Numbered from the stretch's first letter, positions 10,597-13,779 are shown. The stretch: 64,000 nucleotides of DNA from an uncultured Alphaproteobacteria bacterium (GCA_934277945.1 CAKQWA010000006.1:12173-76172), one strand, 5' to 3'. Notes: generated from the letters alone by a model not told the origin. Translations and numbers: made by a program.

Positions 10597-12786
10597 TCAG
10601 TTTTCGGGAACGTTCGGCACTGTTGGAATTGCGGGCGGTTCAGCGGCGGCAACGCTCGGCACGGGCGCCGGCACGTTCGGCATCGCAGGCGTCGCGGGTG
10701 CGGCGACATTCGGCACGGCGGGAGCGGGCATGGCGACGCTCGGAGCGGCTTCCGGCGCGTTCGGCACGGCGGGAGCGGCGTGAACGGCGGGCGCTTTAAT
10801 CGTCGGGATTTTCAGCGTCCGCGTCGATTTAAACCCTTGAATGACCGGCGCTTTCACTTTCACCTGCGCCGTTTCCGCAGGCGAGCCCTGCTGTTGCGCC
10901 GCCGCCGCTTTCTGCGCGCGCATCCACGCGGGCAAATCGCTGTCGTCCTTTTCGTTCTCGTTCAATTTGAACGTCGGCGGAGGCGGCGGTCTGTCGTCCA
11001 CGTTGTCTTCCATCTTGGCTTCGACGGTGACCGCCTCCTCAATCTTCTTATCCTGTTCGTCCGGTTTCAAAATGACGATTTCCACGCCCTTTTTGTCTTT
11101 CGGGCGGATGATTTTGACCAAATCCTCGCTTGTCACTTTGTCGTACATCATCAAAACGGACAGCGGGTTTTCGATGTGATGCTGAATCAAACGCTTGATT
11201 TCGCGCACGCCGTTTTTCGCGATAAAAACTTCGTCGGCGAACCATTTGCGCGCTTCCAGCGTCAATTCGGCACGCAATCCGACGGCTTTGGCGCGTTTGA
11301 CAAACTTGTTCAGGTGGATGTCCACAATCGCCAGCAGATTTTCTTCCGCCAAGCCGTGAAAGGGAATGATGTCGTCGATACGGGCGAGAAATTCGGGACG
11401 CAGGTTTTTGCGCAAAAATTCCATACGCTGATAGCGCGGCAAATTCGCCCCCAAGTTCGACGTCATGATGACGATCGTGTTGCGGAAGTCGACCGTCGTG
11501 CCTTTGCCGTCCGTCAATCGCCCTTCGTCAAGCAGTTGCAGCATCAGGTTTAAAATTTCGCTGTGCGCTTTTTCCAATTCGTCGAACAGAACGACCTGAT
11601 AGGGACGCAGGCGCACCGCTTCGGTCAGCACGCCGCCGTTTTCGTAACCGGGAGTCCCCGGCGGAGGTCCGAGCAAACGCTGAACGGAGATTTTTTCCAT
11701 GTATTCGGACATATCCAGACGCAGCAGCGCGGTTTCGTCGTCGAACATGAATTCGGACAAAGCCTTTGCCAATTCCGTTTTACCGACGCCGGTCGTACCG
11801 ATGAACAGGAACGTGCCGAGCGGTCGGTTCGGGTCTTGCAAGCCGGATTTCATGCGCCGCACCGCGCCGGAGATGACGGAAATCGCTTCGGGCTGACCGA
11901 TGACGCGCCGTCCGATGAAATCTTCCAGACCGATCAGGCGTTTTTTGTCTTCGGCATCGACTTTGTCCATCGGGATGCCCGTCCAGAACGACACGATGTT
12001 GGCGATGTGCTGAGCTTTCAGAACGTTGTCCGCCGTTTTCTTTTCGTCCAGATCCATCATCAGCCCCGTCGCCGCCTCGTCCAGCAAATCCAGCGCTTTT
12101 TCGGGGAACAGGCGCGACTTGACGTAGCGTCCGGACATATTCACCGCGTTCTGCACGATGTCGTCGGGAATGGAAATGCCGTATTTTTGCTCCAAACGCG
12201 GCTTGACCCCGCGCAGAATGTCCGTCGTTTCGGCGGGAGTCGGTTCTTCAATGTACATCGTTTGCAGACAACTCATCAAATCGGGGTCTTGCTCGATGTA
12301 CATTTTGTAAGCGTTCAGTTCGGCTTCCACGACGCATTGAATACTGCCGTCCAGCACTTTCGGCTTTAAGAATTTCGGGATTTCGTGATCCCCGTTCGGC
12401 GTGAACGCCAGAAAGCCCAAATCGTTGATGTACAGGATTTTCTGCCCTTTGTACGACGCCAGTTCCTGAAACGCGGTTTTCAAATGGTCTTCGTATTCCG
12501 CCTGCGTTTTGGAATCGATCATCATCGACGCGACGTCGATGGACACCAGTCCGTAGCCTTTCAGACGCGGCGGGACGTTTCCCTCGGTCATGGCGGCGGC
12601 GACGCCTTCGATAATTGACGTTTTGCCGATGCCCGTCGGACCAAGAAGAATCGGGTTGTTTTTCATGTCGCGCAACAAAATGTGCATGACGCGGCGCTGA
12701 TCCTTGACGCGCCCGACAACCTTTTTCAACTTGCCCGCTTTGTATATTTCGGAATAATCGACAATGTATTTGCTGTGTTCCGCCAT
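10597..12786 (-). CDS. ClpA/ClpB-family double AAA+ ATPase. It lacks the N-domain and M-domain and has a Pro/Ala-rich repetitive C-terminal tail.
   Basis: NBD1 Walker A LLGPTGIGKTSIIEGVA and NBD2 FIGTTGVGKTELAKAL, with strong alignment to ClpB NBD2 (DFRNTIVIMTSNLG). Spacing between the two Walker A motifs is about 280 aa, which is ClpA-like. No IGF/L ClpP-docking loop was seen. The last approx 130 aa are low complexity with VPN/PAP repeats. ATG at 12786. Confidence 0.8.
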   Translation of the reverse strand: MAEHSKYIVDYSEIYKAGKLKKVVGRVKDQRRVMHILLRDMKNNPILLGPTGIGKTSIIEGVAAAMTEGNVPPRLKGYGLVSIDVASMMIDSKTQAEYEDHLKTAFQELASYKGQKILYINDLGFLAFTPNGDHEIPKFLKPKVLDGSIQCVVEAELNAYKMYIEQDPDLMSCLQTMYIEEPTPAETTDILRGVKPRLEQKYGISIPDDIVQNAVNMSGRYVKSRLFPEKALDLLDEAATGLMMDLDEKKTADNVLKAQHIANIVSFWTGIPMDKVDAEDKKRLIGLEDFIGRRVIGQPEAISVISGAVRRMKSGLQDPNRPLGTFLFIGTTGVGKTELAKALSEFMFDDETALLRLDMSEYMEKISVQRLLGPPPGTPGYENGGVLTEAVRLRPYQVVLFDELEKAHSEILNLMLQLLDEGRLTDGKGTTVDFRNTIVIMTSNLGANLPRYQRMEFLRKNLRPEFLARIDDIIPFHGLAEENLLAIVDIHLNKFVKRAKAVGLRAELTLEARKWFADEVFIAKNGVREIKRLIQHHIENPLSVLMMYDKVTSEDLVKIIRPKDKKGVEIVILKPDEQDKKIEEAVTVEAKMEDNVDDRPPPPPTFKLNENEKDDSDLPAWMRAQKAAAAQQQGSPAETAQVKVKAPVIQGFKSTRTLKIPTIKAPAVHAAPAVPNAPEAAPSVAMPAPAVPNVAAPATPAMPNVPAPVPSVAAAEPPAIPTVPNVPEN
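10600..10800. repeat. Degenerate short tandem repeats (gttcggcac / gcggcgg units) encoding the Pro/Ala/Val-Pro-Asn tail of the ClpA-like protein.
   Basis: Repeated units cgttcggcac(g/t)g(c/g)cgg(c/g)ag are visible across 10611..10790 on the plus strand. Confidence 0.6.
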
Positions 12787-12795
12787 CAAACGCTC

Positions 12796-13779
12796 CTATT
12801 CCGCCTGAACGATTTTTCTGATTTCTTCCAAAGTATAGCGTTCGTCTTTCAATTTACGCAAGCGTTGAATCTGCCCCAGCGCTTCGGACGAATACAAAAC
12901 GTAGCCGGCGGAGGTCTTGCCCGCCGTTTCCAAAAGCCCCGCCTGCGTCCAGAATCGAATGGCGGACACGCGTTCGCCCGATTCTTTCGCCAAGCCGCCG
13001 ATGCGCATGAAATACGGGTCGGCGTCGGCGGAATCGGAATCGTCGGTCATGGCGGCGCGCTTGCGCAGTTCAAAGCCGCGTTTGACGGCGCGGGCGATCA
13101 ATTTGTCGTAATCTTCGCGGTTGTTGTTGAACAAAGCGTCGTACAGCGCGGCGTGATATTCCTTTTTTTCGCGGCGTAGAAACAGCGCGGGCGCATAGCC
13201 GTGCATCAGCAAAATCAGGTTCATCAGCGTGCGCGCGACGGCGGCGTTCGATTTGGCGAACGGCTGAATTTCCATCAGGCGCAAATGCGCTTCCGCCGCC
13301 ATGGCGACGGGGTGAAGCGAATGCACCGTGTACAGCCACATACCGAAATCGGTCATCATACGCTGCACGCGCGCGGGGGTCGGCAATTCGCGCTCCGTAT
13401 CGGCGAATTTCAGCCCCGCGCCGCGATAATATCCGGCGTTTTCATCGTCCAAATCGCGCGTTAAAACGCGGTGGATTTCCTTGACGTCCTTTTCGTCCAA
13501 AGAGTTCGCCGTGCGTTTCGCGGCGTAGGCGACGGCGAATTTGTAAGCGTGCGCGGCGTTCAGCGCGGCGATGTGTTCCGTCAGCGTGTGCGATGGCACG
13601 ACTTCGTTTTTCAGCAAAATTTCGGCGATTTGCTTGCGCGTGAAAGTGCCGCCGTCAAAAAAATTCCCCGTGCAGACCAATTCGCACACCGTCCGGTCGT
13701 GAAGCCGCTTTTGCGCTTCGTCCGACAAGGCGGGCAAAGCGTCCGTCAGGCTTTTCTTTTCGCTTAAATCCTCGTACAT
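12796..13779 (-). CDS. Fic-fold protein with a degenerate catalytic motif, fused to a C-terminal MerR-type HTH DNA-binding domain.
   Basis: Fic core helix region MEIQPFAKSNAAVARTLMNLILLMHGYAP. QPFAKSNAAVAR sits where the canonical HPFx(D/E)GNGRxxR motif would be. C-terminal MRIGGLAKESGERVSAIRFWTQAGLL...YTLEEIRKI matches the MerR HTH. Its stop lies 9 bp before the ClpA-like start. Confidence 0.65.
   Translation of the reverse strand: MYEDLSEKKSLTDALPALSDEAQKRLHDRTVCELVCTGNFFDGGTFTRKQIAEILLKNEVVPSHTLTEHIAALNAAHAYKFAVAYAAKRTANSLDEKDVKEIHRVLTRDLDDENAGYYRGAGLKFADTERELPTPARVQRMMTDFGMWLYTVHSLHPVAMAAEAHLRLMEIQPFAKSNAAVARTLMNLILLMHGYAPALFLRREKKEYHAALYDALFNNNREDYDKLIARAVKRGFELRKRAAMTDDSDSADADPYFMRIGGLAKESGERVSAIRFWTQAGLLETAGKTSAGYVLYSSEALGQIQRLRKLKDERYTLEEIRKIVQAE

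Follow-up and report, generated by a model that had tools for sequence, protein, structure and literature searches.

The window analyzed here is a 64,000-nt stretch of DNA from an uncultured Alphaproteobacteria bacterium (GCA_934277945.1, CAKQWA010000006.1:12173-76172). At positions 10,597 to 13,779 it carries two adjacent minus-strand genes. The first encodes a degenerate Fic protein fused to a MerR-type helix-turn-helix (HTH) domain, called Fic-MerR below, and the second a ClpB-derived AAA+ ATPase, called Clp-like. The original prediction, made from the sequence alone, treated the two as a module that might act as a toxin-antitoxin (TA)-like pair or as a stress or defence cassette. Features of the locus are listed in Table 1.

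The two genes are tightly spaced. The TAG stop of Fic-MerR occupies 12798-12796, and an AGGAG Shine-Dalgarno sequence for the Clp-like gene overlaps it. The Clp-like open reading frame (ORF) covers 10597-12789, giving 730 aa from a TTG start or 729 aa from the ATG at 12786, and is in the same frame as the Fic-MerR ORF. On the other side, 12 nt separate gltA from Fic-MerR, idh and gltA overlap as ATGA, and acnB and idh overlap by 8 nt. The 9-bp and 12-bp gaps given in the original prediction thus agree with the sequence. Locus L037 has the same 9-nt Fic-MerR/Clp-like spacing, with a second in-frame stop inside the spacer, and in L015 and L028 the two ORFs are out of frame with each other; stop-codon read-through producing a fusion was rejected on these grounds. 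No fused Fic-MerR/Clp-like protein was found among the homologs of either protein.

Table 1. Coordinates of the Fic-MerR and Clp-like genes, their domains and the flanking features in the 64,000-nt window.
Feature	Position	Strand	Details and evidence
Pseudo-Fic/MerR-HTH fusion gene (Fic-MerR)	12796..13779	-	327 aa + TAG; ORF call, translation, Pfam
FICD-like Fic domain, ~aa 20-245	13045..13722	-	phmmer, AF2, Foldseek, dN/dS
Degenerate class II inhibitory-helix motif GNFFDG, aa 38-43	13651..13668	-	replaces (S/T)xxxE(G/N)
Degenerate active-site motif QPFAKSNAAVAR, aa 172-183	13231..13266	-	replaces HPFx(D/E)GNGRxxR
MerR-type winged HTH, aa 258-326	12802..13008	-	Pfam MerR_1, PDB alignment, model
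Fic-MerR/Clp-like spacer, 9 nt	12787..12795	-	window sequence
ClpB-derived AAA+ (Clp-like) gene	10597..12786	-	729 aa + TGA; family alignment
Degenerate NBD1, aa 5-251	12034..12774	-	residue-level alignment to M. tuberculosis and E. coli ClpB
NBD2 + D2-small, aa 258-560	11107..12015	-	ClpB and family alignments
Disordered C-terminal tail, aa 561-729	10600..11106	-	tail alignment, composition, pLDDT
Non-coding stretch 3' of the Clp-like stop	10430..10596	-	frame-0 translation, direct-repeat family D1
Conserved array upstream of Fic-MerR	13792..19869	-	Pfam, NCBIfam, synteny; Fic-MerR is the fifth member
gltA	13792-15084	-	
Divergent IDH-like gene (idh)	15081-16862	-	
acnB	16855-19371	-	
Lipoprotein p159	19390-19869	-	
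GNAT gene, between the Clp-like gene and atpD	9943-10422	+	
N-ATPase operon atpD-C-Q-R-B-E-F-A-G, downstream of the Clp-like gene	2845..9753	-	Pfam, including AtpR PF12966 and ATPase_gene1

Pfam recognized a Fic domain at aa 94-190 of Fic-MerR (E = 8.5e-12) and MerR_1 at aa 258-326 (E = 1e-13). Among solved structures, human FICD is the closest in sequence (phmmer E = 3e-20, aa 20-230). An AlphaFold2 (AF2) model built from 62 sequences had a predicted local distance difference test (pLDDT) score of 92.9, and its best Foldseek match was also FICD (E = 8e-14, root-mean-square deviation 2.0 A over 244 columns). The phmmer match to FICD, the confident model and the Foldseek match indicate that the Fic fold, as claimed in the original prediction, and the dead motif within it are both real. 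The motif QPFAKSNAAVAR of Fic-MerR aligns with HPFIDGNGRTSR of human FICD in the phmmer alignment. Measured against the HxFx(D/E)GNGRxxR signature, it has H replaced by Q, D/E by K, the two G by S and A, and the first R by A, so that only the F, the N and the last R of the signature are left. The inhibitory motif of class II Fic proteins is likewise altered: GNFFDG stands where canonical relatives have SNAIEG (S to G, E to D), and FFDGG aligns with the inhibitory AIEGN of FICD. To judge from these alignments, AMPylation by Fic-MerR is very unlikely, because the motif His, D/E, both Gly and first Arg are replaced and these positions vary freely in close relatives.

The MerR-type domain is also present, as the original prediction had it. 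The winged HTH covers positions 1-68 of the 69 in MerR_1, residues 1-69 of MerR and CueR from the PDB align to aa 258-324, and the secondary structure of the model agrees. The protein does not have the MerR architecture of N-terminal HTH, long coiled coil and C-terminal effector site: its HTH is C-terminal, with the last residue, aa 327, at the place where MerR has the start of its dimerisation helix.

Some 174 relatives of Fic-MerR were recovered from 5.8 billion proteins, nearly all ~327 aa long and with the same architecture. At 45% identity or above, the motif is degenerate in 46/46 relatives, which together with the FICD alignment bears out the earlier claims of motif loss and unlikely AMPylation. 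These 46 proteins derive from gut and rumen metagenome-assembled genomes (MAGs) named "Alphaproteobacteria bacterium". The relatives at 41% identity or below (n = 74) are nearly all canonical, with HPFxDGNGRTAR and TSNAIEGN. Within the degenerate clade, the His site is occupied by Q, H, W, M or L, the D/E site by K, Q, E, T, S, M or V, and the first-Arg site by A, T, R, K, C, G, D or H; FDG is present where canonical relatives have the inhibitory IEG. In nine species pairs of this clade, the Fic domain had dN/dS values of 0.05-0.17 and the HTH values of 0-0.12. The degenerate clade is under purifying selection and is not decaying.

The canonical family members examined stand alone in accessory contexts. 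At L041 (4833-6966) a canonical Fic-MerR gene adjoins an integrase and a DUF4172-Fic gene, at L043/L044 another lies near VapBC and AbiEii, and a third sits among metal-homeostasis genes. The degenerate clade descends from this widespread canonical family, found in mobile or accessory contexts, and its distribution suggests that the ancestral family was mobile or part of defence islands.

To place the degenerate clade in its genomic context, one genome per species was scanned with the close clade as query, and the 24 resulting loci sample only the degenerate Fic-MerR clade. Directly upstream of Fic-MerR, acnB-idh-gltA was present in 24/24 of these species-representative loci, and the same synteny was found in L001-3, L037 and L039. 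This linkage is the strongest signal in the data. The acnB-icd-gltA connection made in the original prediction therefore stands; the co-transcription it proposed is suggested by spacing and synteny. Further upstream, p159, a 227-aa protein (p227) and a U32 peptidase follow wherever the sequence extends far enough; the 227-aa protein had no Pfam match. No conserved MerR-type operator or promoter site was found upstream of the Fic-MerR array, because the array is part of a longer co-directional gene run (p159, p227, the U32 peptidase and often another gene) that offers no conserved intergenic region. A consensus scan stayed at background level.

Downstream of Fic-MerR the arrangement is variable. 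The Clp-like gene follows in 3/24 species representatives (L011, L015 and L028) and is missing from this position in the other 21. Elsewhere the downstream neighbor is an M32 carboxypeptidase, spaced at -7 to +2 nt, an MBOAT gene at +4 nt, a 436-aa protein without a Pfam match or a convergent gene; in a further arrangement, a 118-aa ORF precedes HisZ-like and purA genes. Close packing behind Fic-MerR is thus normal in these compact genomes, and there is nothing specific about the Clp-like gene in this respect.

The Clp-like protein is most similar to ClpB, followed by ClpC, Hsp104 and ClpA, and its top PDB matches are ClpB (E = 1e-144). Pfam identified AAA_lid_9, AAA_2 and D2-small. Residues 5-251 correspond to ClpB 162-411 and residues 258-559 to ClpB 535-836. 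Because the alignment starts at ClpB 162 and skips from 411 to 535, the N-domain and the M-domain are absent, and all family members begin at the same point, directly at the first nucleotide-binding domain (NBD1). An alternative upstream start encoding an N-domain, which the original prediction had named as a possible refutation, was rejected: an in-frame TAG lies three codons before the TTG, the DNA ahead of it codes for Fic-MerR, and the proteins of the family share one N-terminal starting point. The ClpP-docking tripeptide is also missing, in that no IGF, IGL or VGF occurs in the 15-aa post-sensor-1 loop SNLGA-NLPRYQRMEFLRKNL-RPEF, whose expected position was judged by the ClpB alignment and by what is generally known of ClpA and ClpC. 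The only [ILVM]G[FLM] tripeptides in the protein lie elsewhere (LGF123, IGL285 and VGL502). The ClpB and family alignments thus uphold the original description of a protein without N-domain, M-domain or ClpP loop.

The protein does not contain two competent AAA+ modules with aromatic pore loops. In NBD1 the Walker A motif is intact, the Walker B DE is changed to ND (N121-D122), the Arg fingers RR to S172-C173, and the pore loop KYRGEFE to KTQAEYE (K93-T94-Q95-A96-E97-Y98-E99). None of the 120 closest homologs has DE, RR or KYRG in NBD1. In NBD2, Walker A and B, sensor 1, the Arg finger and sensor 2 are intact, and the pore loop GYVG is changed to GTPG (aa 377-380, nt 11647-11658). The Tyr position of this loop is T, S or Q in 120/120 family proteins, and in the non-family representatives for which the loop was located it is always Y, W or F. 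In an exhaustive search of 1.84 billion representatives, the family comprised five clusters at 50% identity scoring 619-1258 bits; below these, scores fall to 491 bits, for ordinary ClpB and ClpC.

The C-terminal tail extends 169 aa past D2-small, and its last 85 aa include 21 Ala, 21 Pro and 11 Val. Residues 582-729 are predicted to be disordered (pLDDT < 50), except for a short helix at 620-632. The tail contains DDRPPPPPTFKLN, DLPAWxRA and K(A/V)PVI(Q/K)GFKST, followed by a variable Pro/Ala/Val-rich stretch, and the motifs DDRPPPPPTFKLN, DLPAWKRA and KVPVIKGFKST are conserved in close relatives. Its length varies, a point the original prediction had suggested checking: a 99%-identical relative (P0121) has a tail shorter by 4 aa, and across the family tails range from almost none to ~250 aa. 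The low-complexity tail was correctly predicted; its encoding by "degenerate tandem repeats" holds only loosely. Tandem Repeats Finder gave one weak array (9 nt x 2.9, score 38), and a regular tandem repeat was rejected. What is present is a 16-nt unit encoding VPNV, in five dispersed copies at irregular spacings that are all multiples of three.

The genomic context of the Clp-like gene differs from that of Fic-MerR. In all lineages at 72% identity or above (window, L005-8, L011, L015, L028 and L037/38), an N-type ATPase (N-ATPase) operon lies directly downstream; in the window it has the order atpDCQRBEFAG with AtpR and AtpQ, following the N-ATPase operon definition of PMC2881411. The upstream neighbor is Fic-MerR in the window, L037, L011, L015 and L028, dapF in L005-7 and a divergent hypothetical gene in L008. 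Relatives at 45-61% identity have neither Fic-MerR nor the N-ATPase as a neighbor, and three of them share a LOG, Clp-like, mutY arrangement. At L035/L036, L045-L047 and L048, LOG is divergent upstream and mutY immediately downstream, often overlapping; the Clp-like members in this context are tail-less or differently tailed.

A conserved -10-like GGGCATAAT box precedes the Clp-like ATG by 33-40 nt in L011, L015 and L028, within spacers of 72-80 nt that have otherwise diverged (L011 10982-11053, L015 10985-11064 and L028 10988-11064). In L008 (~6940-6975) CATAAT occupies the same position. The conservation of this box upstream of the ATG suggests that the Clp-like gene has its own promoter.

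Adjacency of Fic-MerR and the Clp-like gene is limited to five related lineages (window, L037, L011, L015 and L028) and does not track both gene families across divergent genomes. Both genes also occur unlinked. On the L008/L039 contig they are ~35 kb apart: acnB-idh-gltA-Fic-MerR is found at ~20 kb, and the Clp-like gene, accompanied by the N-ATPase operon, at ~56 kb. Together with the unlinked L005-7 and the 21/24 species representatives without adjacency, this speaks against the module, TA-like pair or cassette of the original prediction. That prediction also held that the co-occurrence would be coincidental if homologs were never adjacent in other genomes; they are adjacent in some, yet the adjacency follows local synteny and not the gene families. 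In a neighbor-joining tree of acnB and gltA, the adjacent lineages do not form one group but two, and L039, in which the genes are unlinked, is nested next to one of the two, indicating that the arrangement was gained or lost more than once. The same lineages share the gene order of a whole block of ~20 kb that runs from a P-type ATPase to the N-ATPase operon, so the pairing is not specifically preserved. The juxtaposition is a feature of this collinear block (P-type ATPase-p159-acnB-idh-gltA-Fic-Clp-N-ATPase) in a few related lineages. The two genes of the window probably share a transcript, as a result of genome compaction and not of functional pairing.

We conclude, with a probability of roughly 0.7, that each gene is anchored independently of the other, one encoding a pseudo-Fic transcription factor of a tricarboxylic acid (TCA) cycle gene array and one a stand-alone atypical Hsp100 protein, and that they were brought together in one sublineage. 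By this account a sublineage of uncultured gut and rumen Alphaproteobacteria would have placed both genes side by side. Fic-MerR would be a pseudoenzyme transcription factor that has lost the catalytic motif and the inhibitory Glu, carries a winged HTH without the MerR coiled coil, and always comes last in the p159-acnB-idh-gltA array. Its Fic fold may now serve as a dimerisation and ligand- or partner-sensing module while the HTH binds DNA, and the protein could make expression of the oxidative TCA branch, or that of other targets, responsive to a metabolic signal. The Clp-like protein would be a stand-alone protein of a ClpB-derived family that is small and lineage-restricted. Its NBD1 probably binds nucleotide without hydrolysis, NBD2 appears catalytically intact and neither pore loop is aromatic; the protein may thus act as an NBD2-driven hexameric remodeller, without canonical threading, that recruits partners via its tail motifs.

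Several points weigh against this conclusion. Only 9 nt separate the genes in the window and L037, where the Shine-Dalgarno sequence overlaps the Fic stop and co-expression is almost certain. Adjacency is kept in five lineages down to ~60% acnB identity. No DNA target, ligand or partner was found for Fic-MerR or the Clp-like protein, and the functional roles proposed for both derive from sequence only. The first two points, with the confinement of both families to the same group of MAGs, would also be expected of a genuine functional pair, in which the co-translated pseudo-Fic/MerR protein acts as an in-trans N-domain, adaptor or regulator of the Clp-like ring. We consider such a pair unlikely. 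Fic-MerR and the Clp-like gene persist unlinked in most lineages, and the Clp-like family lacks an N-domain everywhere, including beside LOG and mutY. The -10-like box before the Clp-like gene in L011, L015 and L028, the collinearity of the ~20-kb block as a whole in the same lineages, and the lack of fusion proteins argue against it as well.

The Fic domain of Fic-MerR could be an enzyme with non-canonical chemistry, in the manner of Doc, a kinase, or AnkX, a phosphocholine transferase, with the Clp-like protein or an enzyme of the TCA cycle as its target. Purifying selection has kept the fold, the flap region and the invariant residues P173, F174, N178 and R183, and some clade members retain the His (HPFGKGNGKTAR, HPFAEGNGAVAR). 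Non-canonical FIC motifs with other activities are known (PMC8401265). We find this unlikely, since the would-be catalytic positions (His, D/E and first Arg) vary freely among close relatives, which is not expected of a conserved alternative active site.

A role of the Clp-like protein specifically in the assembly or quality control of the N-ATPase encoded next to it is just as unlikely. The gene lies directly upstream of atpDCQRBEFAG in all eight lineages examined at 72% identity or above, despite a differing upstream flank, and close homologs in that group have the conserved-motif tail (DDRPPPPPTFKLN and others). These lineages are close kin, so shared descent explains the pattern; relatives at 45-61% identity have no ATPase neighbor, and in the window and L008 an opposite-strand GNAT gene stands before atpD. 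We downgraded this partnership because distant relatives show the LOG/mutY context.

The defence or TA assignment was examined with PADLOC, which matched the Fic domain to PDC-S04 and SoFic (E = 1e-15 to 1e-12) and NBD2 to DolB and PDC-M37B (E ~1e-31), with no full-length match and no partner genes. Although these matches and the mobile or TA-rich contexts of canonical Fic-MerR relatives could be read in its favor, the assignment was rejected and is already largely refuted, leaving it a very remote prospect: the matches are to single domains and far weaker than those to FICD and ClpB, the locus does not resemble FicTA (the toxin motif is dead, there is no small ORF as an antitoxin partner, and the neighbors are gltA and a 729-aa AAA+ protein), and Fic-MerR is a fixed core-genome member of the TCA array in 24/24 species under purifying selection, whereas defence islands are variable.

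Returning to the two independently anchored genes, a stronger form of that conclusion can be put forward only tentatively. Fic-MerR might be the first case of a Fic fold serving as the sensor and dimerisation domain of a transcription factor, domesticated from a mobile, active ancestor into an oxidative-TCA array, and the Clp-like protein might represent a new Hsp100 class that functions in the absence of pore-loop tyrosines, does not thread substrates, has an NBD1 that only binds nucleotide and reaches its targets via tail motifs. Full-text literature searches gave no description of the degenerate Fic-MerR family or of the Clp-like family.

Comparison with known systems places each protein at some distance from its relatives. 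FICD/HYPE and the bacterial class II Fic proteins (BT_2513, 3CUC; C. difficile Fic) share the fold and have the inhibitory helix in the same place. Distant members of the Fic-MerR family keep HPFxDGNGRTAR and TSNAIEGN, whereas the window protein has the motif replaced, the inhibitory Glu changed to Asp and the Ser/Thr to Gly, and its Fic domain is fused to a MerR winged HTH and not to a TPR or other domain. Degenerate FIC domains serving as binding modules have been described in BepC and Bep8 of Bartonella (PMC8401265). These resemble Fic-MerR in their degenerate motif and conserved fold; however, the Beps carry OB and BID domains and are secreted as effectors, and Fic-MerR is a cytoplasmic HTH fusion in a core metabolic array. 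MerR and CueR share the winged HTH, which in Fic-MerR is C-terminal and without coiled coil or C-terminal effector region. BldC, a MerR-like protein without a coiled coil, is a possible parallel.

The Clp-like protein has in common with ClpB and Hsp104 the two-tier AAA+ layout and the intact NBD2 motor elements, and differs in its altered NBD1 motifs, its GTPG loop and its added long disordered tail. Having neither N-domain nor M-domain, it has no DnaK-coupling element. With ClpA, ClpC and ClpE it shares the class I double ring, aligning in a single stretch to ClpA 173-740, but it lacks their N-domain, ClpP tripeptide and pore-loop tyrosines. The plant proteins SMAX1 and D53 are ClpB-derived regulators that are not chaperones. 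They offer an analogy only, that of a degenerate double-NBD scaffold, with a weak Pfam NBD_SMAX1 match on NBD1 (E = 0.004, below the cut-off); the Clp-like NBD2, unlike theirs, looks catalytically competent.

Because the two-gene system does not appear to be real, listing it as a new stress or defence cassette would be a mistake. The degenerate Fic-MerR clade is of interest as what seems a clean natural case of enzyme-to-regulator conversion, tied to acnB-idh-gltA in every genome examined, and may offer a handle on regulation of the TCA branch in uncultured gut bacteria. The Clp-like protein is highly conserved though it lacks residues held to be essential for threading (the pore-loop tyrosines, the NBD1 Walker B and the Arg fingers), which raises the question of how a double-ring Clp ATPase is used without translocation.

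Further features of the locus were recorded. Past its stop codon the Clp-like frame stays open for ~55 codons and is again Pro/Ala-rich, and direct-repeat family D1 connects 10466-10505 with the tail-coding 10679-10802. The stretch at 10430-10596 may be a decayed or recently truncated extension of the tail. Separately from the N-ATPase operon, a related species (L002/L003) carries an F-type atpB-E-F-F' cluster.

In the array, the gene between acnB and gltA encodes a 593-aa protein with only weak matches to isocitrate dehydrogenase (IDH) (PF03971, E = 3e-9; Iso_dh, E = 1e-6; PDB 7y1u, E = 1e-10), and it is kept in every related locus. To judge from these matches, it may be a very divergent IDH type. 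The p159 product is a predicted lipoprotein of 159 aa with the lipobox L-x-G-C and no Pfam match, and its gene is directly upstream of acnB in nearly all related loci. The P-type ATPase gene (19891-22638) interrupts the array only in lineages that also have the Clp-like gene after Fic-MerR.

Two public entries carry names that do not fit their gene content. The L012 record, titled Limosilactobacillus gorillae, and that of protein P0190, named Lactobacillales bacterium, contain alphaproteobacterial acnB-idh-gltA-Fic or Clp-like genes in an arrangement near-identical to that of the Alphaproteobacteria MAGs. Both contigs are probably mis-binned in the public assemblies.

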